NCBI GenBank assembly: GCA_026707405.1
Contig: JAPOWW010000001.1
Location: 192,136 to 256,135, forward strand
Direction of reading: 5' to 3'
DNA: 64,000 nucleotides
From: Chloroflexota bacterium
GTDB lineage: Bacteria; Chloroflexota; UBA11872; VXNJ01
Position numbers and translations under genes: made by a program. Under the pieces are notes generated by a model. It searched no databases and had not been told where the DNA came from. It was given only the letters and a program-made list of their open reading frames with translations. The number at the start of each line of letters is the position of its first letter. Position 1 is the stretch's first letter. Positions 36,791-51,935 of the stretch are shown here, piece by piece.

Positions 36791-37548
36791 TGACGGAACA
36801 ACGACTCGGACTGCGGATCATCAGGTACGATCCCGAAACGTACGACAGCTCTGAAACGCGTGAATATGAAGTTCCCACGAGAGATTCCCTGACCCTTCTC
36901 GACGCCCTGGTATCGATACACGAGGAACAGGACTCGTCCCTGGCGATTCGTTACTCCTGCCGGGGCGGGTTCTGCGGAGCCTGCGGGGTACAGGTCAACG
37001 GCCTGCCCGTGCTCGCGTGTCGAACACGCGTATCGTCCCTCGATTGCAACGGGTCCCCCGTCGAGATAGCTCCCTTGCAAAACCATCCGGTTATCCGGGA
37101 CCTCGTCGCCGACTTCGATCCCACCTTCCTGACGCTCGGGGCGGGGGAGCCCTGGATTCAATCCGATGAAGGATCGCCGGGGAGCGGCATGGACTCGGAC
37201 ATGACGCAGGAGGAGGTTGACCGTCTGGGACGGTCCCAGGCGTGCATTTCCTGCGGCCTTTGCGATGCGGCCGTGCCCCACGCACATGTGTCGGCAGGCT
37301 TCGTCGGCCCCGCAGCGCTCGTTCGGGAGTTCCGGTTGGCGGCTGACGTGCGCGACGGCTCCGACCGCGACCGCCTCGAACGGGTCAACACGAGCGGCGG
37401 AATTTGGGACTGCGATCCCGACAATTCATGGGACGACGCGTGCCCCGTTGGAATAGACCCGGCAAACAAGATCGAGCTGCTTCGCGAAGCTTCGATTGCA
37501 AACAAGATCGGCGGTCGCAAACGGGTCGAGTCCGAAACGGCCGCGTAG
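36787..37548 (+). CDS. sdhB: Succinate dehydrogenase/fumarate reductase iron-sulfur subunit-like protein, with degenerate [3Fe-4S] ligands
   Basis: The [2Fe-2S] motif CRGGFCGACG...C is intact. The second motif is CISCGLCDAAVP (CxxCxxCxxxVP, with the fourth Cys replaced by Val). The third motif is CDPDNSWDDACP (the middle Cys replaced by Trp). The start overlaps the sdhA stop (ATGA). Confidence 0.8.
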   Translation: MMTEQRLGLRIIRYDPETYDSSETREYEVPTRDSLTLLDALVSIHEEQDSSLAIRYSCRGGFCGACGVQVNGLPVLACRTRVSSLDCNGSPVEIAPLQNHPVIRDLVADFDPTFLTLGAGEPWIQSDEGSPGSGMDSDMTQEEVDRLGRSQACISCGLCDAAVPHAHVSAGFVGPAALVREFRLAADVRDGSDRDRLERVNTSGGIWDCDPDNSWDDACPVGIDPANKIELLREASIANKIGGRKRVESETAA

Positions 37549-37613
37549 ACCAATGCAAATGAGCGCGGACAGGCGTGTTGGCCCCGGTATTGGAAGATTG
37601 ATGCGGAGGAAGT

Positions 37614-38543
37614 TTGGCACGCACTAAGGTAACCGTCGCCGGCGCGGGGCAGACCGGGGGATCTATCGCCCGTCGGGTAGCCGAGAGAGGTTATGCCGAC
37701 GTCGTGATGATCGACGTGGTCGAGGGGTTTGCCGCTGGCAAGGCGCTCGACCTCAATCAGACCGGCCCGCTGATGGGGTATCCACCGAACCTGATCGGCT
37801 CGACGGGCTATGACGAGTCCGAGGACTCCGACATCTGCGTGATTACGTCGGGGTTTCCGCGGCAGCCCGGAATGTCGCGCGACGACCTCCTGCTGAAGAA
37901 CAAAGAGATCGTCGAGGACGTAGCGGGCAAACTGGCAGAGAAGTCTCCCGACTGTAAGTTCATCGTACTGACCAACCCGGTCGACGCCATGGCCCAGCTC
38001 GTCCATTCCGTCACGTCGTTTTCCAAGGAGCGCGTGATAGGACAGGGCGGCATTCTGGATTCGGCGCGATATCGGACGTTCATCGCCTGGGAACTGAGCG
38101 TGTCGCCTCAAGACGTGTCGGGATTCGTTCTCGGAGGGCATGGGGACGCGATGGTGCCGGTGCCTCGTTACACGTCCGTGGCGGGCGTCCCTGTCGGCGA
38201 GCTGCTGCCCCAGGACCGTTTGGATGCCATTATCCAGCGGACGCGGGACGGGGGAGCCGAGATAGTAAAGCTCCTGCAACGCGGCAGCGCTTACGAGGCT
38301 CCGGGCGAGGCCGTGATGCTGATGATCGATGCGATTGTCTTGGACCAGAAACGGCTATTCCCATGCTCGGTCCTGCTCGAAGGCGAATATGGGATAAGCG
38401 GCACGTTCGTGGGAGTGCTGGTGAAGCTGGGGGCGCAAGGCTACGAGGGGCTGATCGACGTTTCCTTGACTGAGGAAGAGCTTGCTGCTTTACATAAATC
38501 TGCGGACGGCGTGCGCGAACTCGTGGAGATAATGGGCGTCTGA
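37614..38543 (+). CDS. mdh: Malate dehydrogenase (LDH-like, NAD-dependent)
   Basis: KVTVAGAGQTGG is the Rossmann motif. The catalytic LGGHGD and the substrate Arg are present. Length is 309 aa. Confidence 0.85.
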   Translation: MARTKVTVAGAGQTGGSIARRVAERGYADVVMIDVVEGFAAGKALDLNQTGPLMGYPPNLIGSTGYDESEDSDICVITSGFPRQPGMSRDDLLLKNKEIVEDVAGKLAEKSPDCKFIVLTNPVDAMAQLVHSVTSFSKERVIGQGGILDSARYRTFIAWELSVSPQDVSGFVLGGHGDAMVPVPRYTSVAGVPVGELLPQDRLDAIIQRTRDGGAEIVKLLQRGSAYEAPGEAVMLMIDAIVLDQKRLFPCSVLLEGEYGISGTFVGVLVKLGAQGYEGLIDVSLTEEELAALHKSADGVRELVEIMGV

Positions 38544-38635
38544 CCGCGACTCCCGACAGATAAAATCGAACGGTCCCTTGATTACCGGTCGCGGCTCGGT
38601 TGGTTACGATCCCGCAATGCAAAGGATACGAATTG

Positions 38636-40048
38636 ATGGCAACACGCACTGAGCGCGATCCGCTCGGCGAAGTCGAGGTCCCGTCCGAAGCGCTTTACGG
38701 CGTTCAGACTCAGCGGGCGGTCGATAATTTCCCAATCTGCGCAATAGGTCCGCATCCGGCGTTCGTCTGGGCGACGGTGCTCATCAAGAAGGCGGCGGCC
38801 GTTACGCATCGTGAGACGGGGCGCCTGGACCCGAAGCTTGCCGACGCGATTATCCAGGCGGCGGACGAAGTGCTGGACGGGCTGCACGGCGATCAGTTCG
38901 TGGTGGACGTTTTCCAGGCCGGAGCCGGCACGTCGCACAACATGAACGCGAACGAATTGCTCGCCAATCGCGCAAATGAGCTGTTGGGCGGTTCGCGCGG
39001 CGACTACGATCCCGTGCATCCCAACGACCACGTAAACATGGCGCAGTCGACCAACGACATCATCCCGACCGCCATCGCGCTAGCCGCGCTGCATCTCTTG
39101 CAGCCGCTGTACGAGGCGCTTGACGAACTAGCCGATTCGCTGGAGCAGAAGGCGCAGGATTGGGACGGGATCGTCAAGTCGGGCCGCACGCACGTGCAGG
39201 ACGCCACCCCAGTCCGCCTCGGGCAGGAGTTCGGGGCCTATGCAGTCGCCGTGCGACGCGGCCGCGAGCGAATCGCGGCGGCGGAAGTAGATGTCCAGGA
39301 GCTGAGCGTCGGCGGGACCGCCGTGGGAAGCGGTCTCAACGCGGAGCCTCGGTATCAAGAGCGGGTGGTCGAGGTGCTGGGCGAGCTGAGCGGATTGACC
39401 GTACGGCGGTCGGAGAATCTGTTCTACTCGATGCAGAGCATGTCGCGGTTCGCGATGCTATCGGCGGCGCTCAAGGCGCTGGCGGTCGACCTGGGCAAGC
39501 TGGCCAACGACATCCGCCTGCTGGGATCGGGACCACGCACGGGGATATCCGAGCTCAGGCTGCCGGCGGTCCAGCCGGGATCGTCGATCATGCCGGGCAA
39601 GGTCAACCCGGTGATGGCCGAGTGCCTGAACATGATTTGCTTTCAGGTGTTCGGAAACGACCTCGCCATCACGATGGCGGCGGAGGCCGGGCAGCTTCAG
39701 TTGAACGTGATGATGCCGGTGATAGCCCACAACCTCTCGCAATCGATCGACATCCTGGCGAACGGCTGCAAGCAGTTCGACGAGCTTGGCGTGCGCGGTC
39801 TGGAGCCGGACAGAGCGATGATCCGACACTGGCTGGAGCGCAATACGATGTTGGCGACCGCTCTAGCTCCAAGGATCGGCTATGCGGCGGCAGCTGAAAT
39901 CGCCAAGGAAGCGGTACGGACAGGTGAGAGCATCCCGGATGTCGCTGGACGCATGACCGATCTGTCAGAGGACGAATTGGCTCAGGCGCTGGATCCCGCG
40001 CCGATGACCGAGGCCGGCATTCGCGCCGGTGGTGGAGGCGGCGGCTAG
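38636..40048 (+). CDS. fumC: Class II fumarate hydratase (FumC)
   Basis: The GSSIMPGKVNP signature is present. An SD sequence AAGGA lies 11 nt upstream of the ATG at 38636. The C-terminus carries an unusual Gly-rich tail (GGGGGG). Confidence 0.85.
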   Translation: MATRTERDPLGEVEVPSEALYGVQTQRAVDNFPICAIGPHPAFVWATVLIKKAAAVTHRETGRLDPKLADAIIQAADEVLDGLHGDQFVVDVFQAGAGTSHNMNANELLANRANELLGGSRGDYDPVHPNDHVNMAQSTNDIIPTAIALAALHLLQPLYEALDELADSLEQKAQDWDGIVKSGRTHVQDATPVRLGQEFGAYAVAVRRGRERIAAAEVDVQELSVGGTAVGSGLNAEPRYQERVVEVLGELSGLTVRRSENLFYSMQSMSRFAMLSAALKALAVDLGKLANDIRLLGSGPRTGISELRLPAVQPGSSIMPGKVNPVMAECLNMICFQVFGNDLAITMAAEAGQLQLNVMMPVIAHNLSQSIDILANGCKQFDELGVRGLEPDRAMIRHWLERNTMLATALAPRIGYAAAAEIAKEAVRTGESIPDVAGRMTDLSEDELAQALDPAPMTEAGIRAGGGGGG

Positions 40049-40096: not shown

Positions 40097-41581
40097 CTAC
40101 CAGGGCCAGGCTTGCGGTTCGCCGGTGTCCATGTCGAGCGTCCAGGCCTCAAACGACCGTCTGATTAGCTCGTTGCGAATCGGGTCTCGACCAGGCTCAA
40201 GCCAAAGATCGTCGAACTCATGTGGGTCGTTATGGAGATCGAAAAGCTCGCCCAATCCGGCGCCGTGATAGCAAACTAGCTTCCAGCGCTCGTCGCGGTA
40301 CATCGTTGCGTAGGCGGGTATTCCTTCCGGGGAATGGTAGAAGTACTCGCATCGCACGAACTCCTTGTGATGATCAGGAGACGCGCCGCCGGTGAGAATA
40401 GGCAGCAGCGACCGTCCCTGAACGTGGGCGGGAACCGGCAGACCGGTGATCTCCAGAAGCGTCGGCACGATATCCACAAGCTCGACTAACGCGTCGCTCT
40501 TCAGTCCCGCCTTCGCTCCGGCGGGAAAGGACCATAGCAAGGGCACTCGCACAAGTCCTTCGTAAAACCTCGCTCCCTTCATCACAAGCCCGTGGTCGCC
40601 CAGCGCCTCGCCATGGTCGCTGGTGAAGATGATGACGGTGTTCTCGCGAAGACCGGCCGATTCGAGCCAGTCCAGCAGCCGTCCTATTTCGTGGTCGATA
40701 AGCTCGATCATCGCGTAGTAAGCGGCTTTTAGCTGGCGGGCTCTGATCACGTCGAGCGGGTACGGTCCCACGGCAAATGGGACTTGCGCTAAACGCTCCT
40801 GCCGGTGGAGATCGCTATCGCGAAAGGGGGGATCGCTCAACGTCTCCGGCGGATAACGCTTGTAGTAGTCCCAGGGAGGATCCGAGGGAGGATGCGGGTC
40901 GAACGCATTGACGCTGAGGAACCAGGGGCGCTCGCGGGGCTGGGATATGAACTCGATAGCCTTATCGGTACACCACCTGGTCTGGTGCAGCTCCGGCGGC
41001 GCATTATCCGAACCGGGCGTGGGTACCTTTAGTCCAGCCCATCCGTTTTCAGGAGTTACCACCCTCAAACCGGGCGAGTCGTATGTGTCGATTGCGTCAA
41101 CGGGATCGTGGCCCTGAAGCCGTACCCATTCGAGGTATGAATCGCCATCTGGCCAGTACCGATAGGGCATGTGGCTGTATTGGAAATAATCGAAGCCGTC
41201 GTCGCGGCGGTTCTCGGGTCCGTTGTGCGCGCCTGCCAAGTGCAGCTTGCCGATCAGACCGCAGTCGTAACCGGCGTCGGACATGATACGGCTTATGAGT
41301 TTGTCGACAAGGCTCGCGGGGTAGGTCTCGCACCCGTTGCGAATGACGTGATTGGCGCTCGGGTACATTCCGGTCAAGAAGCTGGCACGGCTCGGCGTGC
41401 AGACGGGGTTCTGGCAATAGGCATGGGTGAAAGCCGCGCCCTCGGCCGCCAGCCTGTCGAGATGGGGCGTGCGAATCTCGGAATTGCCGAGAGCGGCTAT
41501 TGTGTCAAAACGCTGCTGATCGGTGCAATACAGCAGTATGTTCGGACGCTCGTTAGGGCCGCCTTGCCCGGAGACTGCCAC
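40097..41581 (-). CDS. Cys-type sulfatase (arylsulfatase family S1)
   Basis: The CTPSRASFLTGMY formylglycine motif (C-x-P-x-R) is present, with the N-terminal metal-binding PNILLYCTDQQRFD. Confidence 0.9.
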   Translation of the reverse strand: MAVSGQGGPNERPNILLYCTDQQRFDTIAALGNSEIRTPHLDRLAAEGAAFTHAYCQNPVCTPSRASFLTGMYPSANHVIRNGCETYPASLVDKLISRIMSDAGYDCGLIGKLHLAGAHNGPENRRDDGFDYFQYSHMPYRYWPDGDSYLEWVRLQGHDPVDAIDTYDSPGLRVVTPENGWAGLKVPTPGSDNAPPELHQTRWCTDKAIEFISQPRERPWFLSVNAFDPHPPSDPPWDYYKRYPPETLSDPPFRDSDLHRQERLAQVPFAVGPYPLDVIRARQLKAAYYAMIELIDHEIGRLLDWLESAGLRENTVIIFTSDHGEALGDHGLVMKGARFYEGLVRVPLLWSFPAGAKAGLKSDALVELVDIVPTLLEITGLPVPAHVQGRSLLPILTGGASPDHHKEFVRCEYFYHSPEGIPAYATMYRDERWKLVCYHGAGLGELFDLHNDPHEFDDLWLEPGRDPIRNELIRRSFEAWTLDMDTGEPQAWPW

Positions 41582-41652
41582 TCTCTACGCCGCCCACGCG
41601 GACGGCGGCGGCACCGGGATGTTTGCGGGGGCGGAACGGCAAGGCGGCATGG

Positions 41653-42543
41653 CTATCCCTTGATTCCCGTCAGAGTAACGCCCTGCGTGAAATAGCGCTG
41701 CGCAAAGCCGAATACGACCACCATGGGCGCGACGGAAGCGAAAGCCGCGGCCATCATGAGGTTCCAGAACTGGATGTCCTCGCCCGTCGCGTCGATCATG
41801 GCGCTGAGGGCGATGCTTATCGTCCACTTCGTCCTGTCGGTCAGAAAGACGAGCGGGTAGAGGAAGTCGTTCCAGACGTTGGCAAACGCGAATATGCCGA
41901 TGGCGATCAGCACCGGCCTTGACAACGGCACCATGATCTGCCACCAAATCCTGAACTCCGACGCGCCATCGACCCTCGCGGCGTCGGAGAGCTCCTGTGG
42001 GATCGTTCGATAGAACTGCCGGACGAAGAAAATGAAATAGGGCGTGCCGAAGAAAGCCGGCACGATCAACGGCAGGAAGGTGTTGACCCAGTTCATCCAC
42101 TTGAAGAGCAAGAACGTCGGTAGCAGTCTGACCGCCAGCGGAACGATCATCGTGCTGATCATGACTATGAAGAGGAAGTTCCGTCCTGGCGCGCGCAGCC
42201 GTGCAAAACCGTAAGCGACGAAAGAGGCCGACAGAACATCACCGACGATCACGAGCGCTGAGATCAGCGTCGTGTTGAAGAAGTATTGATGGAACGGCAG
42301 GAAGGTTAGCGCCTCAACGTAGTTCTGCCATACGACCGGACTGGGTATGTAGACGGGCGGGAAGCTCTCAACCTGGGTCGCTTCCTTGAGCGAAGTCGAC
42401 GCCATCCACAGGAACGGCAGGGCGAAGATGAACGCCACAATGAGAAGAACAAAATGGATGGCGGCGTGGCGCCCCACTCCGGGCGCGGACTGGAATAGTC
42501 CGCGCCGGACGTGCGTGGCGATTACCGCGACTCGATCACTCAT
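41653..42543 (-). CDS. Carbohydrate ABC transporter permease (MalG/UgpE-like)
   Basis: 6 TM helices and the EAA-like loop (LSDAARVDGASEFRIWWQIMVP) are present. Confidence 0.85.
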   Translation of the reverse strand: MSDRVAVIATHVRRGLFQSAPGVGRHAAIHFVLLIVAFIFALPFLWMASTSLKEATQVESFPPVYIPSPVVWQNYVEALTFLPFHQYFFNTTLISALVIVGDVLSASFVAYGFARLRAPGRNFLFIVMISTMIVPLAVRLLPTFLLFKWMNWVNTFLPLIVPAFFGTPYFIFFVRQFYRTIPQELSDAARVDGASEFRIWWQIMVPLSRPVLIAIGIFAFANVWNDFLYPLVFLTDRTKWTISIALSAMIDATGEDIQFWNLMMAAAFASVAPMVVVFGFAQRYFTQGVTLTGIKG

Positions 42544-43466
42544 GTCTCGTAGTGCACCCAGTGCCGGCTTGTGCCGAACGTAATTCCGGTTACGGCGAGC
42601 ACCAAAACGAACAGCACCGTCGCCATGGCCGACGCGTAGCCCATCTCAAAGTTCTTGAAGGCGTAACGGTAGAGATAGAGGACGTAGAAGAGCGTCGAAT
42701 TCAAAGGCCCGCCCCGCGTCATGATGTACGCGAAGGTGAAAACCTGGAAGTGCGTGACGAGACCGATTACGAGTAGAAAGAAGGTCGTAGGACTGAGCAT
42801 CGGGATCGTTACGTGCCACATGCGCCGCAGGACGTTGGCCCCGTCGATGGACGCCGCTTCGTACAGGTGGGTCGGGATGTTCTGCAAGCCCGCCAGCATG
42901 ATCACCATCGTCTGACCGACATACCAGAACGAGAGCAGAATTATTCCGGGCTTTGACCAGTTCTCGTCTTGAAACCAAAGCGGGCTTGGAATTCCGAATA
43001 CGTCCAGAAGGTGCTTCACTACCCCCAGCTCAGCGTGCAGCAGCCACAAGAAAATCACCGAAGCGGCGGCGTGCGGCACGATCATGGGGAGATAGAACAG
43101 CGTTCGGTAGGCGCCTCTGCCATGAATACGGGTGTTGAGGAACATCGCGAGCGTGAACGCGATCAAAAGCTGTCCGGGCACGGATATCACGACGAAGTAG
43201 ATGGTATTGAGCAGCGTGATGGTGAAAAGGCGGTCGTCGGTGAAGATGCCGACGTAGTTTTCCAGCCCAACCCATTGCGGCGCCTTGAAGACGTTGTAGC
43301 GCGTGAAGCCGAGATAGAAGACGGCCACGATGGGGCCGGCGGTAAACACCAGGAACCCCAGCAGCCACGGCGAAAGGAACGTATAGCACCAGAGGGCCTC
43401 TCGCCGGCTTGCCGAGAGGCGGACCTTGCCGCCGGCCTGAGGCGCGGAAGCGTCTACAGTCGCCAT
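42540..43466 (-). CDS. Carbohydrate ABC transporter permease (MalF/UgpA-like)
   Basis: 6 TM helices and an EAA loop (YEAASIDGANVLRRMWHVTIP) are present. The gene overlaps the downstream permease by 4 bp. Confidence 0.85.
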   Translation of the reverse strand: MATVDASAPQAGGKVRLSASRREALWCYTFLSPWLLGFLVFTAGPIVAVFYLGFTRYNVFKAPQWVGLENYVGIFTDDRLFTITLLNTIYFVVISVPGQLLIAFTLAMFLNTRIHGRGAYRTLFYLPMIVPHAAASVIFLWLLHAELGVVKHLLDVFGIPSPLWFQDENWSKPGIILLSFWYVGQTMVIMLAGLQNIPTHLYEAASIDGANVLRRMWHVTIPMLSPTTFFLLVIGLVTHFQVFTFAYIMTRGGPLNSTLFYVLYLYRYAFKNFEMGYASAMATVLFVLVLAVTGITFGTSRHWVHYET

Positions 43467-43588
43467 GGCATGGTCCGCCCCTGTACGGCTACGCCGATAG
43501 ATCCCTTAAGCGCCCGCTGATACACGGCCGCGGCGCAACTCTCAGAAATCGAAGGCAGTGTTGGTTACAGAAGGGTTCGACGCTATAT

Positions 43589-45142
43589 CTAGCCTCGCTG
43601 CTCCCACCACTTGTCGACTTCTTTCTGGGACTCGGTGGCGCCCCATTCGACGGCATCCTCGGGCGTGCGCTTGTGCAGCAGGGCCTCTTCCTGCATCTGA
43701 ATCGTGATATCGTTCAGCTTCTCTTGAACTGGCGATGCCGGGGAATGGACACTTAGATCCATTACTTCAAGCGCGAGTTTCCATTCGTCCGGGAAATTCT
43801 CGCCGAAGCGCGGGTCCTTATTGAATTCCTTAACCGGCGACGGTCTGACCTGTGCGATAAAGAACTCGCGGTTGCCCTCGTCGGTCGTGGTCCATTTGAG
43901 AAACTCCCAGGCCCCGTCGGGGTTCTTTACCCCAGTGGGCATGGCGTATCCCCACCCGCCTTCGATCATGTATTGGGTCTTGGCCGCCGGATTCCGGTCG
44001 TTGTAAGGAACGTGGGCGACTCCCCAATCGACGTCGGGAGCCTGAGCTCCCATGATCAGGAACATCCAGATACCGTCGAAAAGGCTCGACACCTTGCCTT
44101 CGAGGAAGGAGTTGCGGAATGCCGAGCCTCCGCTCACGATTGGCCGCACATTCTCGAATCCGCCGTAGGTGGTGTCATAGAAATCGACGAGCCAACGCAG
44201 CGCGCCCTTGCCCTCGTCCGAGTTGTAGAGCACCTGCTTACGGTCGGGGCTGCTGATGCGTCCGTTGTTCATAAATGTCCACGCGCGGAACCAGTAGTTC
44301 GAGCGGACACCGCCGAGCAGCGGATCGACGCCGACTCGCTCCACCTTGTCGCCATCGAGCACCGTCAGCTTTTCCGCCGCTTCTTCCAACTCGCTCCACG
44401 TTTGCGGCTGCATGTCGGGATCGAGGCCCACTTCCTGTGCTTGGGCTTTATTCCAGAAGAACAGGTTCACATTGGTGCTCGTGGAAAACGGAGCGGCGAA
44501 CATCTTGCCGTCCCAGGTGTAGACGTCGACCTCGTAGTCGAACCAGGTGTCCTTGGAAATGTTGTCGATTCGCAGCAACTCGTCGAGCGGCGTCAGCACG
44601 CCGTTGTCGGAGAATGCTACAAGGTGACGCTGGCCGTGGAGCATGATCACGTCGGGCGGATCGCCGCCGGCGATCGCGGTGAGGTACTTCTCGTCCATAC
44701 CTGTTTGCGAGATGAGCGTATGGCGGACTTTGATCTGGGGGTTAAGCTCCTCGAATCCCGCCACCTGGTCCTCGATCAGGGGCAAGCGGGGACCGCCCCA
44801 GACGTGCCAGTAAGTCACCGCCTGAGCCTTGACCATGGGCGCGGCTTCCCGAACAACCTTGGTGACGACTTTCTCGACGACCGTCTCTTTTTCGACTTCG
44901 ACGACCCTCTCGACCTCTACGACTTTCTCGACTTCCTTTTCGACCTCGACGGGGACTTCCTTGACGACCTCCCTGGTCACGACCCGCTCGACCGGCACCT
45001 CCTTGGTGACGACCTCGACGACCCGCTCGGTGACCGTCTGCACCTCGCCGCATCCGGCGATTGCAGCCGTGGCGAGTCCCAAACCGCCCGCCGATCCGGC
45101 AAGAAACCTGCGCCGCAAGATCTGGTTTCGCGAGTTCATCAA
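43589..45142 (-). CDS. Extracellular solute-binding lipoprotein (family 1 sugar SBP) with an N-terminal V/E/K-rich repeat tether
   Basis: A Tat/lipoprotein-type signal (RRRFLAGSAGGLGLATAAIAGC) is followed by about 60 aa of (V/E/K/T)-rich imperfect repeats, then a periplasmic-binding fold. Confidence 0.8.
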   Translation of the reverse strand: MMNSRNQILRRRFLAGSAGGLGLATAAIAGCGEVQTVTERVVEVVTKEVPVERVVTREVVKEVPVEVEKEVEKVVEVERVVEVEKETVVEKVVTKVVREAAPMVKAQAVTYWHVWGGPRLPLIEDQVAGFEELNPQIKVRHTLISQTGMDEKYLTAIAGGDPPDVIMLHGQRHLVAFSDNGVLTPLDELLRIDNISKDTWFDYEVDVYTWDGKMFAAPFSTSTNVNLFFWNKAQAQEVGLDPDMQPQTWSELEEAAEKLTVLDGDKVERVGVDPLLGGVRSNYWFRAWTFMNNGRISSPDRKQVLYNSDEGKGALRWLVDFYDTTYGGFENVRPIVSGGSAFRNSFLEGKVSSLFDGIWMFLIMGAQAPDVDWGVAHVPYNDRNPAAKTQYMIEGGWGYAMPTGVKNPDGAWEFLKWTTTDEGNREFFIAQVRPSPVKEFNKDPRFGENFPDEWKLALEVMDLSVHSPASPVQEKLNDITIQMQEEALLHKRTPEDAVEWGATESQKEVDKWWEQRG

Positions 45143-45173
45143 CCTACCTCCTCATCGCCGGGAACCCGGCAGC

Positions 45174-45506
45174 CTACTCTTTCAAGACCAGATAGATAAT
45201 CACTTTGACCTCTGGATCGGAGCCGTCTAGGTCCGCGCTGAGGCGGAGCCATCCTCCAAACTCCCGGAGCTTTATCGAGTAAAGTCCTTCCTCGCGCATG
45301 ACGGGCAGCTCGGTCCCCTCGTCGATCCAAAACATGCCGTCCGGCGAAATCTGCACTCGCGCCCTAAGCTCGGCGCCTTGTCTGATGCTCAGGATTCGCA
45401 CGAACCATCTGGCTTCCGACGCCCAGGCGCACTCGTGAGGCTCGGTGTCGAAACTCGAAGTGAAGACCGAGTTTCGTTCGACTACCGCGGTGTGGGACGT
45501 TCTCAC
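45174..45506 (-). CDS. Hypothetical protein (110 aa), no recognisable family
   Basis: The ORF is same-strand and tightly spaced within the SBP / unknown / HIBADH operon. Its composition is protein-like. No motif match was found by eye. Confidence 0.4.
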   Translation of the reverse strand: MRTSHTAVVERNSVFTSSFDTEPHECAWASEARWFVRILSIRQGAELRARVQISPDGMFWIDEGTELPVMREEGLYSIKLREFGGWLRLSADLDGSDPEVKVIIYLVLKE

Positions 45507-45511
45507 GCTCG

Positions 45512-46465
45512 CTACCAGTCGGCCGAAATCAGCAACGAATCGACGTACAGGAAATTGCGAACCGGCACCCGCGTACGCACGTTGATCTCAAGATTCAACA
45601 AACGGGCGAGCCCCCAATACGGAGAGTCGTGCACGGGTACAGGGATGTCGCGAAGGTCCATGACCTTGTCGTTGACCTGAAGCTCGACGTTGCGGCCCCT
45701 GCCGATGTCAAACACCCACCGCAGGTAGTGCCAGTTCACTTTGGACGGAATCTCGTTGTAGCAGAGCGGCTGATATCCGTCAGGAACATCCTCCCAGTCG
45801 GCCGGGTCCTGCACCTGGAAGTCCTCGAGCGGATGCTCAAGGTAATCGTCGGGGAACATGTCTCTGATCGTCCTGCGCGTTACCTGCAGCGACGTTTTGT
45901 ATTTCCAACGCCGAATCAAGTTGCCCTGAGCATCGGCGTTGACGTAGCGAAGCGCGCAGTGAGTTCGCCGTCCCTCGTCGTCGATTTGAATGTCGTTACC
46001 GATCATGATGTCGCCGAACTGCGCTTCCGAGGGATGGTAGTTTCCATCCCATTCCCGTCCGCCTTCGGGCACCGGCTCGAAGTTCCATTCGGACTTGTAG
46101 CTGAAGTACATCTCCATTTGCACCGGCCCAAGGTCTTGCCACGTGAGTCGCTTGCACAGTACCGCCATATGGTCGGGAACGGGCCGGGTAGCAGCCTTGA
46201 GGGCGTATGTACCCGACATCGGCCCGTGCGTGCCCTGGTCGAAGTACGTGCACGTGCTCAACTGGGCGGGATGAAAGTCACGGACGTAGCGAGCCATGTT
46301 GTCGAGATTTCCGTCTGTGTTGCCGATCAGCTCGCACCAGCCGTTGACGCCGTTGTCGAAGTCGTCGAAGCACAGGATTCGCGGGAGGGGATTGAACTTG
46401 CTCAGCTTCGGATCGGCCCGAAGCAACGCCAGCCTGAGGGCGTCTGCATCGATCACTCGGCGCAC
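45512..46465 (-). CDS. Hypothetical protein (317 aa), no recognisable family; candidate enzyme of the sulfatase locus
   Basis: A well-behaved ORF, Trp/Asp-rich and predicted beta-rich, sits between the HIBADH-like gene and the SBP gene on the same strand. No motif match was found by eye. Confidence 0.45.
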   Translation of the reverse strand: MRRVIDADALRLALLRADPKLSKFNPLPRILCFDDFDNGVNGWCELIGNTDGNLDNMARYVRDFHPAQLSTCTYFDQGTHGPMSGTYALKAATRPVPDHMAVLCKRLTWQDLGPVQMEMYFSYKSEWNFEPVPEGGREWDGNYHPSEAQFGDIMIGNDIQIDDEGRRTHCALRYVNADAQGNLIRRWKYKTSLQVTRRTIRDMFPDDYLEHPLEDFQVQDPADWEDVPDGYQPLCYNEIPSKVNWHYLRWVFDIGRGRNVELQVNDKVMDLRDIPVPVHDSPYWGLARLLNLEINVRTRVPVRNFLYVDSLLISADW

Positions 46466-46533
46466 CTCCCGCCTTCAAGTCGTTGGGGCTGCGAAAGTAG
46501 CGCACACTCCTCCAAGAATGTCAAGCAAGAATG

Positions 46534-47433
46534 TCAAGCGCTGAGCTCTACTCCCGCGACCTCCTCCCAAAGCCTTACCGCAGAGGTGAAGTTCTCCTCA
46601 CCGAAACCCTTGGCGGTCGATGCCGTGAACATCTGTTGAGTCACGGCGGCGTAAGGGGTTATAGACCCAATCCGAGATGCAAGCTCAGTCCCCAGGCGGA
46701 CGTCCTTCAAAGCGTGGCGAGTGAGAAATCCGGGCTTGAAGTCGCGCTCGAAGACCGAGCCTTCGAATACGGCTTCGAGCGACCTGTTCCAGACGACCGT
46801 CTTTCGGAACAGGTCGACCATGAAACCGATGTCCAGGCCAGCCTTGGCGCCCAGCGTCAGAGCCTCGGCGTCGGCCAGGATGATCGTAAACGCGAGCATG
46901 TTGTGGATCAGCTTGAGCGTCGACGCGGTCCCGAGCGGGCCGCAATATACGATCTCCTCGCTTAGCCGGTCCATGACGTGACGAACTTCATCCAGATCGG
47001 CCTCGTCGCCGCCCGCCAGGAGCCGCATGGTGGCGTTCTCGGCATCACGCGAAGAGCCGGTTATCTTGCACTCAAGCATTCGCACATCCTCCAGGCGAAG
47101 GCGCTCGGCAACGCGCAAGGTGGTGTCGGGGTCTACGGTGCTGAGGTCGATTAGCATCCGTGGCGGCTCTTGGGCACTCGCAATTCCGTCTTCACCGGTG
47201 ACGGCGTCATCCAGATGCTTGGGTTCAGGCAGCGCGGTCATCACGTAGTCAGTCTTCTCCGCCGCAAGTCTGGGCGAGGCCGCCGCCCTGCCGCCGGCCG
47301 CGGCCAGCTTCCCGGAGCGCTCCGATACGAGATCGAACCCAACAACGTCATGGCCTGCCTTCAGAAGGTTCTTGGCCACGCCGGAGCCGATAGCTCCGAG
47401 GCCGACAAAGCCGATGGTGAGACTCCGTTCCAT
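46534..47433 (-). CDS. NAD(P)-dependent 3-hydroxyisobutyrate dehydrogenase-family reductase (tartronate semialdehyde / sulfolactaldehyde reductase-like)
   Basis: IGFVGLGAIGSGVAKNL is the Rossmann motif, and the catalytic Lys lies in the GTASTLKLIHNM region. The longest ORF begins at 47457; the start is placed at the internal Met (MERSL). Confidence 0.8.
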   Translation of the reverse strand: MERSLTIGFVGLGAIGSGVAKNLLKAGHDVVGFDLVSERSGKLAAAGGRAAASPRLAAEKTDYVMTALPEPKHLDDAVTGEDGIASAQEPPRMLIDLSTVDPDTTLRVAERLRLEDVRMLECKITGSSRDAENATMRLLAGGDEADLDEVRHVMDRLSEEIVYCGPLGTASTLKLIHNMLAFTIILADAEALTLGAKAGLDIGFMVDLFRKTVVWNRSLEAVFEGSVFERDFKPGFLTRHALKDVRLGTELASRIGSITPYAAVTQQMFTASTAKGFGEENFTSAVRLWEEVAGVELSA

Positions 47434-47457
47434 TACTGCAAGCTCCTGCAAGGGCAA

Positions 47458-47582
47458 CTCTTAAGTTCGAGCCGAGATCCCGCCAGAGTGTACCCAAGAC
47501 GGAGAACAGGACGAGGCGGCCTGGGATACTATTTCCCGGCTATGGCAGTGCCAAATCACGAGTACCGGGTGGTTTTGGCTGA
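47458..47582. promoter_or_regulatory. Divergent intergenic region between the HIBADH/ABC operon and the sulfatase-dehydratase operon
   Basis: A 125-bp non-coding gap separates two back-to-back operons. It is the likely position of bidirectional promoters and a regulator binding site. No consensus elements were identified. Confidence 0.3.
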
Positions 47583-49151
47583 TTGCGGCGCGCCCGCCGA
47601 GTCGAGAGGCCGTCTTCCGTGACGAGTAGCGCCCGGCCCAACATCTTGTGGTACTGCACCGATCAACAGCGTTTCGACACGATCGGCGCGCTCGGCAATC
47701 CACACGTGCATACCTCCAATCTCGACCGGCTGGTGGAGGGGGGCGTTGCCTTCACCCACGCGTATTGTCAGAGTCCTATCTGCACACCCAGCCGCGCCAG
47801 CTTTCTAACCGGGATGTACCCGAGCGCGCTCCACGTCCACAGCAACGGGTCGCTGTACTTCCCCAGCGAACACACAATGGTGACCCGAATGCTCGCGGAC
47901 TCGGGCTACGACTGCGGCCTGGTTGGGAAGCTTGGGCTGGCGAACGGCGACGGCGCCGGAGAACCGCGGGTCGAAAGCGGATATCGATACTATGAATATT
48001 CCAACGGCCCGAAGGTGGGGCGGTCCAATGGCAACGATTATCTGAGGTGGATTCGTGAGAAAGGGCTTGATCCTGTCTCGATCCTCGGTCCGCCGTCGGA
48101 CATCGAACGATACGACCGCGCCGCATTTGCGGGATTCACGTCGAGCCTGCACCGCGGCGGACTGAAGTTGCCGACGCCCGACAAAGACAACGCGCCCGTC
48201 GCCCATCACCAGACGACGTGGTGCACGGAAAAGGCCGTCGACTTCATCTCGGAATCGCAGTTGTCCGACCAACCGTGGCTGCTGTCGGTAAACCCGTTCG
48301 ATCCTCACCCTCCGTTCGATCCGCCGTGGGAGCACTTCCGCCGGTTCGACCCGGAGACGATGCCCGGACCGCATTTCAGGGAGAGCGACCTGGGCCAGCA
48401 AGAACGCTTGAAGAACATCGACTTTCAGACCAAAGCCCGCAACCCGGAGGAATTTGACGCCCGCTCGGTACAGGCCGCTTACTACGCGATGATCGAGCTA
48501 ATCGACGATCGGCTTGGCGCCATTCTGGACGCCCTGGACGAGACCGGTCAGCGCGAGCGCACTGTAGTGGTGTTTACAACCGATCACGGCGAGGCCCTGG
48601 GAGATCACGGACTGTTGCTGAAGGGTTGCCGATTCTACGAAGGGCTTGTGCGGGTGCCGCTGATATGGTCGTGGCCGGGACACTTCAGCGCGGGATTGCG
48701 CAGCAACGCGCTGGTCGAGCTGTTAGACATCGCGCCTACACTGCTGGACCTGGCCGGACTCTCGATTCCGGAACGAATGCAGGGACGGAGCCTTCTGCCG
48801 GTTCTCGGCGGCAGGGCCGATCCCGATGAGCACAGGGATTTCGTCCGAAGCGAGTATTACGACGCGCTGCCGCTTCCCGATGGAACCATGGCGACCATGT
48901 ACCGCGACCGGCGATGGAAGCTTGTCGTGTATCACAGCCACGGTTTCGGGGAGCTGTTCGATCTGCAAGTCGATCCGCATGAGTTCGAGAATCTATGGGA
49001 CGATCCGGCGTGCCAGGCGGTGCGGGAGGACCTCTTACTCAAGTCCTACGACGCCTCGGTGATGGCCATGGACTGGGGGCCGCCGCTGGTTCAGAAGTAT
49101 GAGGACCGGCCAGCCTTTCGGCGGCCGCTGGGCAGGTGGGGCCGGAGATAG
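47583..49151 (+). CDS. Cys-type sulfatase, paralogue of the 40097-41581 gene
   Basis: CTPSRASFLTGMY and PNILWYCTDQQRFDTIGALGN are near-identical in motif to the first sulfatase. It is divergently transcribed from the ABC operon. Confidence 0.9.
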   Translation: MRRARRVERPSSVTSSARPNILWYCTDQQRFDTIGALGNPHVHTSNLDRLVEGGVAFTHAYCQSPICTPSRASFLTGMYPSALHVHSNGSLYFPSEHTMVTRMLADSGYDCGLVGKLGLANGDGAGEPRVESGYRYYEYSNGPKVGRSNGNDYLRWIREKGLDPVSILGPPSDIERYDRAAFAGFTSSLHRGGLKLPTPDKDNAPVAHHQTTWCTEKAVDFISESQLSDQPWLLSVNPFDPHPPFDPPWEHFRRFDPETMPGPHFRESDLGQQERLKNIDFQTKARNPEEFDARSVQAAYYAMIELIDDRLGAILDALDETGQRERTVVVFTTDHGEALGDHGLLLKGCRFYEGLVRVPLIWSWPGHFSAGLRSNALVELLDIAPTLLDLAGLSIPERMQGRSLLPVLGGRADPDEHRDFVRSEYYDALPLPDGTMATMYRDRRWKLVVYHSHGFGELFDLQVDPHEFENLWDDPACQAVREDLLLKSYDASVMAMDWGPPLVQKYEDRPAFRRPLGRWGRR

Positions 49152-49178
49152 CAGCCGGCGGCCGGTAAGGAGGCTTCG

Positions 49179-50351
49179 GTGATGGGAGCACAGAGACGAC
49201 CGACGATCACCCGAATCGAGGCCGTTGAGTTCTTCGTGGAGTTGGAGAATCTGGGGATGACGCCCGACGGCTGCGAAATGCAATATCAACCGGGCGAAAC
49301 GCTGCGGGCCATGCGCTACGCGCTCACGATCGATTCCGATGCGGGCGTGCGAGGAGAGTTTGTCGGTCGAAGACCGGAAAGCTACAACCAGCTACAGCGA
49401 GTGGCCGGGAGGATGCTAGGGCGAAGCGCTCTCGACCGCGAAGGGATTTACGGCGAATTGAAGCGCCAGTTCAGGGCGACGATCAATTTGGCCGTGGCTC
49501 CCCTCGATATCGCGCTTTGGGACCTCGCGGGCAAGCTGTACGGAGCGCCAGTCTACGAATTACTGGGGGGCAGCGACCGTCCCCTGCCGGCATACGCCAG
49601 CACCCACTTCGGGGACGCCAGCGGAGGACTTGACAGCCCCGAGGCGTTCGCCGATTTCGCGGTCCGCTGCAAGGAGATGGGCTATCCCGCCTTCAAGATA
49701 CATAGTTGGGGCGCTCCCATCGAGAGGGAAGTGCGGCTGGTGACCACCGTCCGCGAGGCAGTAGGCGACGGAATGCAGCTCATGCACGATCCGGGCTGCA
49801 CGTACCGGACGTTCCTCGAAGCCTTGACCGTGGGTAAGGCGCTCGACGAGGCGAACTACCTCTGGTACGAGGACCCTTACATGGACGGCGGCATGTCGGC
49901 GTTCGGCAACAAGAAGCTGAGAGAGCTGCTCCGAACTCCAATAATGATTACGGAGCATATCCGCGGACTGGAGCAGCACGTGGACGTGATCGTCGCCGGT
50001 GGAACAGACCTCGTGCGGGTCGACGCGAACCTGGATGGCGGGCTGACGGGGGCGCTCAAAATCTGCCACGCCGCCGAAGGCTTTGGGTTGGACGTCGAGA
50101 TACACTCGCCCGGCCCGGCGCACCGGCACCTTATGGCGTCGATCCCCAACTCGAACTACTACGAAATGTCACTGGTCCACCCCAAGGCGCCTACTCATAA
50201 CGGAAAGGCGTACCTCGACTACGAGGACGAACTGGAGTCCATCGACGCCAACGGATGCGTATCCGTACCGACTGGACCGGGCCTGGGCGTGTCGATCGAC
50301 TGGGACCTTGTAAGCAGGAACCAGACCGGCGGGTTCTTGTTCGAGGCGTAG
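49179..50351 (+). CDS. Enolase-superfamily enzyme (mandelate racemase / muconate-lactonizing family, probably a sugar-acid dehydratase)
   Basis: An N-terminal capping domain is followed by a TIM barrel carrying metal-ligand-like acidic residues (LMHDPG, YEDPY, the KIHSWG region). It lies 27 bp after the sulfatase gene. Confidence 0.7.
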   Translation: MMGAQRRPTITRIEAVEFFVELENLGMTPDGCEMQYQPGETLRAMRYALTIDSDAGVRGEFVGRRPESYNQLQRVAGRMLGRSALDREGIYGELKRQFRATINLAVAPLDIALWDLAGKLYGAPVYELLGGSDRPLPAYASTHFGDASGGLDSPEAFADFAVRCKEMGYPAFKIHSWGAPIEREVRLVTTVREAVGDGMQLMHDPGCTYRTFLEALTVGKALDEANYLWYEDPYMDGGMSAFGNKKLRELLRTPIMITEHIRGLEQHVDVIVAGGTDLVRVDANLDGGLTGALKICHAAEGFGLDVEIHSPGPAHRHLMASIPNSNYYEMSLVHPKAPTHNGKAYLDYEDELESIDANGCVSVPTGPGLGVSIDWDLVSRNQTGGFLFEA

Positions 50352-50409
50352 TTAGGCTCAGATGGTTGCCCGCTGGTTTGCCGCTCGTTTATTTTGATTG
50401 TCTGGGTAA

Positions 50410-50485
50410 GCCCCCGTAGCTCAGTGGACAGAGCAACTGCCTTCTAAGCAGTGGGTCGTGTGTTCGAATCGCACCGGGGGTACCG
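50410..50485 (+). tRNA. tRNA-Arg (anticodon TCT)
   Basis: The cloverleaf was read by eye. The acceptor arm is GCCCCCG/CGGGGGT (with a G-U at position 1-72). The D arm is GCTCAGTGGACAGAGC. The anticodon loop is CTTCTAA. The T arm is GTGTGTTCGAATCGCAC. The discriminator is A. No CCA is encoded. Confidence 0.85.
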
Positions 50486-50801
50486 GACCGTACAGAATCA
50501 AGAATCTTGACTTTTTGGCTCAGATTGGCACCGTAAGGCGCTCGCTGTCGCGGACGCTTGGGCAGCCTCGGTCGTCCCGACCATAAGGCCTGCCTGGCCG
50601 GGCTCCAGGGGCACAGGAGATGTCGATGGATCCCGGTGGGACCGGGTTGACAGGATGGCACGACTAAAGCATCTGAGAGAATGGAACACGCCGCTCCGCA
50701 CCGAACGAAGGGGGCCGCAGTCCGGACGGGAGCCGGAGATGTGGGCCGTGACTCGGCGTACTCCCCGGTGGATGGGGCTCGGTTAAGGGGGGCATGAGTC
50801 C

Positions 50802-51935
50802 GTGACCGCGCTGTCACCGAGCGGCGATCCGTGGTTGCTGACTCCGGGGCCGCTCACTACCTCACCGGAAGTAAAGGAAGCGGCGCGGCACGACTACGGA
50901 TCTCGCGATCACCGCTTCATCGACATCAACCGGCGAGTGCGCGAGCGTCTCGTCGACGTCGTGGGCGGGCACGATACTCACGTCTGCATTCCGCTCCAGG
51001 GCAGCGGCACGTTCGTGGTCGAGGCCATGCTCGGCTCTTTTGTCCCCCGTGACGGCAAGCTGCTGATCCTCGTCAACGGTGCCTACGGCCGGCGGATGGC
51101 GAAGATCTGTGAGGTAGCGGGCCGTCGCAGCGTCCTGGTGGAGACGGGAGAGGACGTGCCCAACGACCCGCGAGCGCTCGACCGCGCGCTGGCGGGCGAC
51201 GCAGGCGTATCCCACGTGGCGGCCGTCTATTGCGAGACTACCTCGGGCATCCTGAACCCCATCGAGGCGATCGCCCGCGTCACCGCACGCCACGGCCGTG
51301 GTCTTCTCATCGACGCCGTGAGCGCCTTCGGAGCCCTGGCTCTCGACACGTGCACGGTGCGCTTCGACGCGATGGCAGCTTCTTCCAACAAATGCCTTGA
51401 GAGCACGCCGGGCGTGGGCTTTTGCATTGCACGGCGCGGGGCCCTCGAGCACAGCGCCGGCAATGCCCACTCGCTCAGCCTCGACCTGCGAGACCAGTAC
51501 CTCGCGATGGAGAAGGACGGTCAATGGCGTTTCACCCCACCGGTCCAGGCCATTCTCTCCCTCGACCGTGCTCTTCATGAGTTCGAGGCCGAGGGCGGCA
51601 CCGCGGGACGCGGCGCGCGCTACCGGGAGAATCTGCACGTTCTGGTGGAGGGCATGCGCCGGCTCGGCTTCGAGACCCTGTTGCCGGACGCCGTGCAGGC
51701 GCCCATCATCGTCACCTTCCACATGCCGGCCGATCCGCGTTTCGCGTTCGAGGCGTTCTACGAGCGCTTGCGGCGTCGGGGCTACGTCATCTATCCCGGC
51801 AAGCTCACTGCCGCCGCCTCCTTCCGCATCGGTTGCATCGGTCGCCTCGGGGTAAAGGAGATGCGCGGCGCCCTCGCCGCGGTAGAATCCATCCTCGATG
51901 AAATGGGAGTCAAGAGTGGCGCGCCCGCCGGATGA
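50802..51935 (+). CDS. phnW: 2-aminoethylphosphonate--pyruvate transaminase
   Basis: The N-terminal LLTPGPLTTS hallmark is present. The class V aminotransferase fold is present. phnX lies directly downstream. Confidence 0.8.
   Translation: MTALSPSGDPWLLTPGPLTTSPEVKEAARHDYGSRDHRFIDINRRVRERLVDVVGGHDTHVCIPLQGSGTFVVEAMLGSFVPRDGKLLILVNGAYGRRMAKICEVAGRRSVLVETGEDVPNDPRALDRALAGDAGVSHVAAVYCETTSGILNPIEAIARVTARHGRGLLIDAVSAFGALALDTCTVRFDAMAASSNKCLESTPGVGFCIARRGALEHSAGNAHSLSLDLRDQYLAMEKDGQWRFTPPVQAILSLDRALHEFEAEGGTAGRGARYRENLHVLVEGMRRLGFETLLPDAVQAPIIVTFHMPADPRFAFEAFYERLRRRGYVIYPGKLTAAASFRIGCIGRLGVKEMRGALAAVESILDEMGVKSGAPAG

Follow-up and report, generated by a model that had tools for sequence, protein, structure and literature searches.

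Sulfated glycans form a large and slowly turned-over pool of carbon. The bacterial systems known to use them are mostly polysaccharide utilization loci (PULs) of Bacteroidota, which combine periplasmic sulfatases with classified glycoside hydrolases (GHs). Smaller fragments can be handled inside the cell. For example, Streptobacillus and Streptococcus import glycosaminoglycan (GAG) disaccharides through ATP-binding cassette (ABC) or phosphotransferase systems and process them with an unsaturated glucuronyl hydrolase, an isomerase and a reductase to 2-keto-3-deoxygluconate (KDG). Here, we analyse a locus at positions 40097-50351 of a 64,000-nucleotide stretch of DNA from a Chloroflexota bacterium (contig JAPOWW010000001.1; the whole stretch is called the window below). 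Its layout is different: it combines ABC import, putative cytoplasmic desulfation, no recognised glycosidase and, at the centre, a strictly paired uncharacterised couple made of a DUF6772 protein and a small partner of 110 amino acids (aa).

Other enzymes also provide points of reference. The C-glycoside deglycosidases CarBC and DgpBC work with an oxidase of the GMC or GFO/IDH/MocA family, and CarB and DgpC are TIM barrels (xylose-isomerase-like). The DUF1080 '3-keto-disaccharide hydrolase' of Bacteroides acts on oxidised glycosides with a concanavalin-A (ConA)-like fold, a fold that also hosts GH16, GH7, GH11, GH12 and several polysaccharide lyase (PL) families. Non-phosphorylative pathways for L-fucose and L-rhamnose use a sugar dehydrogenase, a cog3618/SMP-30 lactonase, an MR/MLE dehydratase and an SDR with a hydrolase or aldolase, and they are reported to be expanded in marine Chloroflexota (PMC10444878). 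In particular, cultured marine SAR202 strains carry MR/MLE and dehydrogenase paralogues in these routes and lack fucosidase and rhamnosidase GH families (PMC10444878).

An earlier note, made from the letters of the window alone, had read the locus as one module for sulfated-sugar breakdown in which the couple appeared as two unknowns of open role. The evidence reviewed here makes these two proteins the conserved core of the system. Our favoured explanation, held with a confidence that balances belief and doubt about evenly, is that the locus serves the cytoplasmic catabolism of a small sulfate-ester compound of carbohydrate type, with the pair performing an unassigned step that is most likely glycoside cleavage.

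A conserved protein pair

Families were assigned to the open reading frames (ORFs) of the window by Pfam and NCBIfam profile searches, and equivalog calls were judged by the curated NCBIfam cut-offs. The larger protein of the pair (317 aa; 45512-46465, minus strand) has no characterised relative, as the label 'unknown' implied, but it is a clear member of the Pfam family DUF6772 (PF20562; E 3e-109, 364.9 bits against a gathering threshold of 27). The gene for the smaller protein (45174-45506, minus strand) starts 5 nucleotides (nt) past the DUF6772 stop. This protein does fall under the Pfam threshold, but it shows a weak likeness to DUF6385 (PF19912; 20.7 bits against a gathering threshold of 26.8), and several homologues that are 47-57% identical to it bear a precomputed PF19912 label. 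An exact-sequence look-up of the DUF6772 protein returned no database record. Profile searches against all PDB sequences, read up to an E value of 10, gave no meaningful solved relative of either protein. PHROGs, PADLOC and NCBIfam were likewise empty for both, and a phage, defence or binary-toxin role for the pair was dropped.

DUF6772 has 697 homologues in the database, which are 54-60% identical outside the window's own lineage whatever the phylum. At least 492 DUF6772 loci are present among the 185,579 representative genomes scanned (one genome per species). The carriers span eight phyla: Chloroflexota, Actinomycetota (Nonomuraea, Streptosporangium and Acidimicrobiia), Bacillota (Paenibacillus thalictri), Pseudomonadota (Alpha- and Betaproteobacteria), Acidobacteriota, Planctomycetota, Verrucomicrobiota and Spirochaetota. 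The closest genome is the chromosome of a Chloroflexota metagenome-assembled genome (MAG; OZ242360.1), whose DUF6772 protein is 98% identical to ours. An exhaustive hidden Markov model search of 1.84 billion representatives returned 276 matches, mostly fragments, all within the DUF6772 family itself; neither fusions nor remote relatives were among them.

The pairing is strict. We fetched 84 DUF6772 loci and sought homologues of the small protein by tblastn; one lies directly downstream of DUF6772 in 83 of them, with gaps from -1 to about 70 nt. The exception (L074:1146-6062) has a gene for a right-handed beta-helix protein of 1005 aa (Beta_helix, NosD) between the two members of the pair and a GFO/IDH/MocA gene upstream. 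Moreover, a second, more distant DUF6772 subfamily, with proteins of about 290 aa at 33-38% identity, is found on alphaproteobacterial plasmids of Terrarubrum, Roseomonas, Chelatococcus daeguensis and Rhizobium sp. Q54 (L086-L089) and keeps a small partner that is 46% identical to that of the window. The two unknowns are thus a conserved core of the system rather than its accessories.

Predicted structures and the question of catalysis

The AlphaFold2 model of the DUF6772 protein (pLDDT 82, pTM 0.81) is a beta-sandwich with a predicted ConA/L-type-lectin-like fold. Its best Foldseek matches are Emp46/47p (Emp47p at the top), legume lectins and ERGIC-53, with GH16 O-glycanases lower down (probability about 1, E 6e-6 to 4e-4, target-normalised TM scores of 0.4-0.48 within an overall range of 0.3-0.48, identity 5-12%); no DUF1080-annotated entry is among the top matches. 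Likeness to GHs or PLs is confined to this remote fold, since sequence searches of Pfam, NCBIfam and the PDB matched the protein to DUF6772 itself and to nothing else. The GH16 motif ExDxxE was not noted on reading the alignment, which was not a formal motif search. The model of the small protein (pLDDT 93) is an eight-stranded, all-beta jelly roll. Its matches are carbohydrate-binding modules (CBMs), the C-terminal domain of XepA (TM 0.72) and PirA-like jelly rolls, and we describe it as a predicted CBM-like jelly roll.

Both DUF6772 subfamilies share an invariant polar core (D76, K90, E118, R173, N176, N237, K242, W245, Y247, D253, R303 and D309) and the family has the signature motif CYNE-x-x-TK-x-NWHY. 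Judged from the alignment, such a core would suit an active or ligand site, without identifying the chemistry.

These data bear on whether the pair is an enzyme at all. It could be a cytoplasmic lectin-like binder with a role in sensing, sequestering or chaperoning the imported sugar, or in regulating the transporter. Lectins and CBMs are its closest structural matches, the window cluster encodes no regulator, and in Alphaproteobacteria the pair sits between the genes for the solute-binding protein (SBP) and the permeases. On the other hand, the pair keeps an identity of 52-60% over eight phyla and a dense set of invariant charged residues, a pattern met more often in active sites. A LacI or GntR regulator is already encoded in most loci, and the pair is also found without any transporter. 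We therefore regard a purely binding or regulatory pair as improbable.

Genomic neighbourhoods of the pair

ORFs around the pair were predicted and grouped into clusters, and selected ones were annotated with Pfam. Counts refer to 78 non-redundant loci and are lower bounds. An importer is encoded in at least 43 loci (CUT1 in 21, Dpp-type in 17, SSF in 6) and a clustered oxidoreductase also in at least 43 (MDR 20, SDR 11, AKR 9, GMC 6, GFO/IDH/MocA 5). SMP-30 or Amidohydro_2 lactonases are recurrent neighbours, the Amidohydro_2 type in at least 8 loci, and a sulfatase lies within about 10 kb in at least 6. Only DUF6772 and the small protein are constant across lineages; the cluster is not one conserved module.

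The operons around the pair follow a common theme with varied members. In an Anaerolineae MAG (L025) the order is LacI, SBP, two permeases, GFO, DUF6772, small protein, Amidohydro_2, MDR, SDR and UxuA. Tagaea (L024) and Devosia share the order GntR, SBP, DUF6772, small protein, two permeases, AKR, Amidohydro_2 and MDR (the AKR label in Tagaea comes from position and from comparison with locus L028). A Chelatococcus operon has LacI followed by DUF6772, small protein, SBP, two permeases, SDR, cupin and GMC. In Acidobacteria the pair comes after GMC, Gluconate_2-dh3 and esterase genes, and in Opitutales a Dpp-type importer precedes it, with an unknown gene and a DHDPS-family aldolase after it. 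Many of the CUT1 operons with the pair encode no recognised GH. All four alphaproteobacterial plasmids have FadR/GntR, MR/MLE, the permeases in some cases, and then the pair; an SDR is present in three, and Rhizobium sp. Q54 additionally has an SDR, an SMP-30 lactonase and a CUT1 system. The plasmid MR/MLE proteins are 26-30% identical to the enolase-superfamily protein of the window. This level excludes the same dehydratase orthologue, which we had considered for other DUF6772 loci, and it argues that an MR/MLE dehydratase was recruited beside the pair independently and more than once.

Sulfatases join the operon of the pair in a Chloroflexia MAG (L010) and in Paenibacillus thalictri (L037), so that same-operon sulfatases predicted to be cytoplasmic are found in two lineages of Chloroflexota and in Bacillota. 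The Paenibacillus locus further encodes GHL6, a FAD_oxidored protein of 756 aa and an AraC/histidine kinase pair. In a Rubrivivax MAG (L012) a sulfatase gene lies a few kb from the pair, beside mannitol-dehydrogenase-family and enolase-like genes. A sulfatase is also near the pair in another Rubrivivax MAG (L021), in Phycisphaerae (L020) and in a further Chloroflexota genome (L073).

A different setting is seen in one clade of Chloroflexota MAGs (L039, L042, L044-L049, L053-L057, L078 and L080). Here the pair and a gene for a 342-aa MDR/quinone-oxidoreductase-like protein form a minimal unit, which adjoins the phosphate regulon (phoR/phoB, pstSCAB) and genes for large leucine-rich-repeat proteins, with no sugar importer nearby.

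The neighbourhoods also speak to where in a pathway the pair would act. The main alternative to glycoside cleavage is a late step, in which a monosaccharide-sized sulfated sugar is imported and the pair works on the sugar acid or 2-keto-3-deoxy sugar acid that the dehydratase yields, for instance by splitting a C-C bond, isomerising the compound or dehydrating it once more. In the four plasmids the MR/MLE gene stands just ahead of the pair or its permeases, and an SDR usually follows. Rhizobium sp. Q54, with its SDR, lactonase, MR/MLE protein and pair, has no aldolase or hydrolase, and the pair could therefore complete the pathway there. In Bryobacterales the pair comes after an SSF symporter, the usual carrier of monosaccharide-sized solutes, and CUT1 systems can carry monosaccharide derivatives too. 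Against this, no late step is missing in the Anaerolineae operon, because KDG, the product of UxuA, needs central enzymes only. The Opitutales locus has its aldolase besides the pair, and many loci consist of the pair and a single oxidoreductase, with no dehydratase. Moreover, we know of no precedent for such late-step chemistry in a lectin-like beta-sandwich. On balance, we consider a late step unlikely, while ranking it first among the alternatives.

Organization of the window locus

The gene layout described in the earlier note holds: nine ORFs are arranged, as their spacing and families fit, in two divergent operons. The minus-strand operon opens with a HIBADH-family oxidoreductase gene (46534-47457) and continues with the DUF6772 gene, the small partner, a CUT1 solute-binding lipoprotein (517-aa ORF; 43589-45142), two permeases and sulfatase A, which closes it. 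Permease 1 is MalF/UgpA-like (308 aa; 42540-43466) and permease 2 is MalG/UgpE-like (296 aa; 41653-42543). Gaps in transcription order are 68, 5, 31, 122, -4 and 71 nt, the negative value being the overlap of the permease genes. The plus-strand operon has sulfatase B and, 27 nt downstream, the gene for an enolase-superfamily enzyme of the MR subgroup (390 aa; 49179-50351). Sulfatase B, which had been placed at one end of the cluster, is therefore interior. Both operons share an intergenic region of about 125 nt (47458-47582), in which a promoter scan found a sigma-70-like match for the minus-strand operon at 47554-47526 (a consensus match only).

Pfam found no ABC ATPase gene among the cluster genes or in the immediate flanks, as claimed before; one ABC_tran gene is present elsewhere in the window. 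Upstream (35105-40048, plus strand) are sdhA/B-like, mdh and fumC genes of housekeeping or central metabolism, and aconitase, isocitrate dehydrogenase and succinyl-CoA ligase families are encoded elsewhere in the window. The downstream flank has a class-V aminotransferase, a HAD hydrolase and an arylsulfotransferase-like (ASST) gene. The 142-aa ORF between the enolase-superfamily and aminotransferase genes (50389-50817, minus strand) has no Pfam, PHROGs or PADLOC match and may not be a genuine gene. The ASST-like gene (52933-54070, minus strand) is split across two frames, with the junction near 53300-53330, and is either a pseudogene or the site of a sequencing frameshift; an intact homologue of 386-388 aa is present in three relatives (L001, L005 and L007), where an ASST gene near sulfatases recurs. 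In the first of these, whose DUF6772 protein is 95% identical to that of the window, sulfatase A and fumC are each fragmented into several ORFs (L001:14879-17410), probably through assembly frameshift errors.

Sulfatases

Sulfatase A (494 aa; 40097-41581, minus strand) and sulfatase B (522 aa; 47583-49151, plus strand) are paralogues. They are 54% identical over 488 aa by BLASTP, somewhat below the roughly 60% judged by eye in the earlier note, and the DNA-level inverted repeats between their genes are confined to conserved coding blocks (75-88%). Both have the Sulfatase domain (PF00884; E 1e-51 and 2e-43 for A and B), an SGSH_C domain and the formylglycine motif CTPSRAS, and neither translation has a signal peptide. 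From these features both are assigned to the Cys-type, type I (S1) formylglycine sulfatases and predicted to be cytoplasmic; because signal peptides are missing, they would work in the cytoplasm after import.

The sulfatases are unlikely to be of the choline or alkyl type, the assignment that would have spoken most directly against a sugar substrate, because they score far under the curated cut-offs: 200.9 and 204.2 bits against 433.45 for the choline sulfatase equivalog (BetC, TIGR03417), and 275.2 and 259.8 bits against 481 for the arylsulfatase equivalog PRK13759. The best solved relatives of sulfatase A are 4UPL, 4UPI, 7OZ8 and 9IHK. Closest are the Ruegeria arylsulfatases SpAS1 and SpAS2 (4UPI, 4UPL; about 30% identity to 4UPI by eye from the alignment), with comparable scores against 7OZ8 and 9IHK (labelled S1_30A) and against S1_11-type entries.

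Such relatives leave room for a chance juxtaposition. That is, the ABC, DUF6772 and reductase operon could serve an unsulfated carbohydrate while the sulfatases and the enolase-superfamily gene act on unrelated, possibly non-carbohydrate (aryl) sulfates. Apart from the solved arylsulfatases, this fits with most DUF6772 loci having no sulfatases, with members of the enolase subfamily found without sulfatases, with the ASST-like gene 2.6 kb downstream (in L001 it adjoins the enolase-superfamily gene), and with synteny of the whole cluster being confined to very close relatives (87-98% identity). The arrangement of the genes points the other way. Sulfatase A follows permease 2 after 71 nt on the same strand, the promoter/terminator scan found no terminator-like site in this gap, and the divergent control region is common to both operons. 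A sulfatase and the pair are also co-operonic in two other lineages (L010 and L037), and the Alphaproteobacteria recruited MR/MLE proteins beside the pair independently. In addition, both sulfatases have SGSH_C domains, and their C-terminal halves find matches in carbohydrate sulfatases, among them 5G2V, 7P24 and 6HR5. We judge juxtaposition to be quite unlikely, a little more so than a late step.

Importer and probable sugar-acid enzymes

The claim of a sugar ABC importer stands. The SBP (Pfam SBP_bac_1 and SBP_bac_8) and the two BPD_transp_1 permeases form the domain set of a CUT1-type carbohydrate (oligosaccharide-type) system, as assigned by profile; the NCBIfam profiles UgpA and MalF for permease 1, and UgpE, GlcU and MalG for permease 2, were all under cut-off. 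In the SBP, a twin-arginine-like signal (RRRF) and an AGC lipobox are followed by a repetitive, V/E/K-rich tether (about 65 aa) that leads into the SBP_bac_1 domain. Among solved structures the SBP is closest to 4R9F ('MBP1', E 5e-38), which we take to be a binder of manno-oligosaccharides, and the other PDB relatives are all sugar SBPs. A mannoside substrate was considered and is not supported; the hints are limited to UxuA and UxuB-like neighbours and to the presumed ligand of 4R9F. The tether itself (residues about 36-101; 44840-45040, minus strand), which links the lipobox Cys to the binding domain, is built of VEKEV-type repeats. Another Chloroflexota genome encodes a PstS homologue with a similar tether (L039:5928-7103, minus strand), and such a tether may be a lineage-typical spacer of lipoprotein SBPs.

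The enolase-superfamily protein (MR_MLE_N and MR_MLE_C) has invariant metal ligands in the alignment (D204, E231 and E259). The strand-2 Lys (K173, within K173-x-H175) and the strand-6/7 Asp-His dyad (D282/H309) are likewise invariant, the second Lys of the KxK motif being His175 in its subfamily. These intact metal ligands and acid/base residues argue for a competent MR-subgroup enzyme, probably an acid-sugar dehydratase. Its best PDB relatives are 1RVK and 4HCD (E 3e-48). None of the named dehydratase equivalogs (galactonate, mannonate ManD, rhamnonate, talarate/galactarate, arabinonate and gluconate) is reached, the best score being 97.8 bits against 750. The subfamily is large (6,224 of 8,000 scored candidates at E up to 0.001), and identities of 55-60% are common among the relatives listed, of which many come from Chloroflexota.

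The HIBADH-family enzyme (NAD_binding_2, E 1.5e-35; NAD_binding_11, E 1.5e-24) is under the cut-offs for sulfolactaldehyde reductase (167.3 against 348), tartronate-semialdehyde reductase (187.7 against 340.75), L-threonate dehydrogenase (147.5 against 350) and the HIBADH equivalog, and its PDB relatives are generic. The reductase and dehydratase proposed in the earlier note are thus borne out at the level of families, domains and dehydratase residues, but neither reaches a characterised equivalog.

A proposed pathway

Import, cytoplasmic desulfation and a sugar-acid route together make a reasonable reading of the cluster. The oligosaccharide-type importer, the formylglycine sulfatases and the intact dehydratase residues all agree with the sulfated-sugar proposal of the earlier note, although no equivalog is reached and the genes are not one module. 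The sugar-acid part is backed by the comparative data, because pairs elsewhere adjoin lactonases, UxuA, MR/MLE dehydratases and sugar dehydrogenases, and the fucose and rhamnose routes of the cultured SAR202 strains (PMC10444878) agree with it.

In the pathway that we favour, the lipoprotein SBP and the two permeases would bring the compound in intact, with an ATPase supplied from elsewhere. The two paralogous sulfatases would then strip sulfate in the cytoplasm, at two positions or on two related substrates. DUF6772 and its translationally coupled partner would act as a heteromer and would most likely cleave a glycosidic or aglycone linkage. The freed sugar would be oxidised to a sugar acid and dehydrated by the MR-subgroup enzyme (a non-phosphorylative route), and the HIBADH-family enzyme would carry out a carbonyl/hydroxy-acid redox step. 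The data show the gene content and families, sulfatases without signal peptides, the intact dehydratase residues, the strict pairing and the recurrent carbohydrate and sugar-acid surroundings of the pair; heteromer formation, catalysis by DUF6772, the order of the steps and the identity of the substrate are what we infer.

The pair is assigned the step not covered by other enzymes because it alone is constant, whereas transporter, sulfatases and dehydratase are lineage-specific. Glycoside cleavage is the likeliest candidate for this step because of the oligosaccharide-type importers, the operons without GHs and the ConA-like fold with a CBM-like partner. The sulfatases and the window dehydratase are best read as lineage-specific add-ons; in this genome the two sulfatases would allow the system to accept its substrate in sulfated form. 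More tentatively, as a proposal that we find plausible but would not expect to hold in most outcomes, the pair may be a new two-subunit family of carbohydrate-active enzymes, with a ConA-like catalytic and a CBM-like subunit. It would carry out the missing cytoplasmic cleavage or conversion of a widespread small glycoside, sulfated in some habitats, and feed non-phosphorylative sugar-acid pathways in at least eight phyla, GH-poor Chloroflexota of marine and host-associated origin among them.

Several points weigh against the favoured pathway. The cluster encodes no lactonase, sugar 1-dehydrogenase, aldolase, kinase or regulator, and a motif search found no formylglycine-generating enzyme (FGE) or anSME/radical-SAM motif in any long ORF of the window. 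Among solved sulfatases, promiscuous arylsulfatases come closest; a sulfatase gene goes with the pair in fewer than 10% of lineages, and SBP and permeases are not orthologous across DUF6772 lineages (25-35% identity). Two sampled contexts of the enolase subfamily (Mesorhizobium and a metagenome) have no sulfatase beside it, and the idea that this subfamily is sulfatase-linked elsewhere was rejected. As for the pair, no importer is encoded within 7 kb of it in 35 of the 78 loci, some loci having the pair and one oxidoreductase alone, and the fold matches are remote and mostly to non-catalytic lectins. Several loci have GH-like proteins beside it (GH51-like, GHL6, BNR_2 and beta-helix), and therefore the pair need not be the glycosidase. 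In the literature, no paper mentions DUF6772 or DUF6385 and no biochemical data are published on either.

Two known chemistries were also considered. A sulfoquinovose pathway is not supported, with no equivalog at its cut-off. The logic of an alginate or uronate lyase with a DEH reductase was attractive since the reductase families vary, and neither sequence nor fold gave evidence for it.

The pair is found in sugar-acid catabolic operons of hosts from soil actinomycetes to marine planctomycetes, and knowing what it does would close a gap that many predicted pathways share. Its activity might explain how GH-poor Chloroflexota gain access to bound sugars. Culturable carriers (Paenibacillus thalictri, Devosia enhydra, Chelatococcus and Nonomuraea) make the role of the pair open to direct testing.

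Comparison with known systems

Taken together, the genes form a variant of the systems already known for using sulfated carbohydrates, with an ABC importer and predicted cytoplasmic sulfatases in a Chloroflexota host. It shares with the PULs of Bacteroidota the co-location of S1-type formylglycine sulfatases with genes for carbohydrate uptake and catabolism. In contrast to PULs, cluster and flanks have no SusC/SusD, the sulfatases have no signal peptides, uptake is of the ABC type, the host is a member of the Chloroflexota, and no recognised GH or PL is encoded in the cluster.

The GAG systems of Streptobacillus and Streptococcus are closer in logic. There, as proposed here, a small sulfated saccharide is imported intact and processed in the cytoplasm, and a reductase leads into a keto-deoxy sugar-acid route. 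However, the cluster has no GH88/GH105, KduI/DhuI, KdgK or KdgA, and bond cleavage would fall to the unrelated pair.

Non-phosphorylative sugar pathways resemble the locus in its MR-subgroup enzyme with intact residues and its NAD(P) oxidoreductase, and sister DUF6772 loci add Amidohydro_2/SMP-30 lactonases, AKR, SDR and MDR oxidoreductases, UxuA and a DHDPS-family aldolase. Unlike these pathways, the window cluster lacks genes for a lactonase, a sugar 1-dehydrogenase, an aldolase and an FAH-type hydrolase, its dehydratase matches no characterised equivalog, and its importer is of the CUT1 type rather than a monosaccharide system. Conversely, the known pathways have neither the DUF6772 pair nor sulfatases.

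For the pair itself, the predicted fold of DUF6772 is like that of L-type lectins (legume lectins, Emp46/47 and ERGIC-53) and GH16-type glycanases. It differs from both in being a predicted cytoplasmic protein with an obligate small partner, and at the remote levels of identity and TM score given above (5-12% and 0.3-0.48). The organization of CarBC and DgpBC offers a further parallel, since the DUF6772 pair also consists of a large and a small protein encoded beside GMC, GFO/IDH/MocA, SDR or other oxidoreductases and an importer. The two systems part in their architecture: CarB and DgpC are TIM barrels, whereas the members of the DUF6772 pair are predicted jelly rolls, and the family of the partner oxidoreductase varies by lineage.

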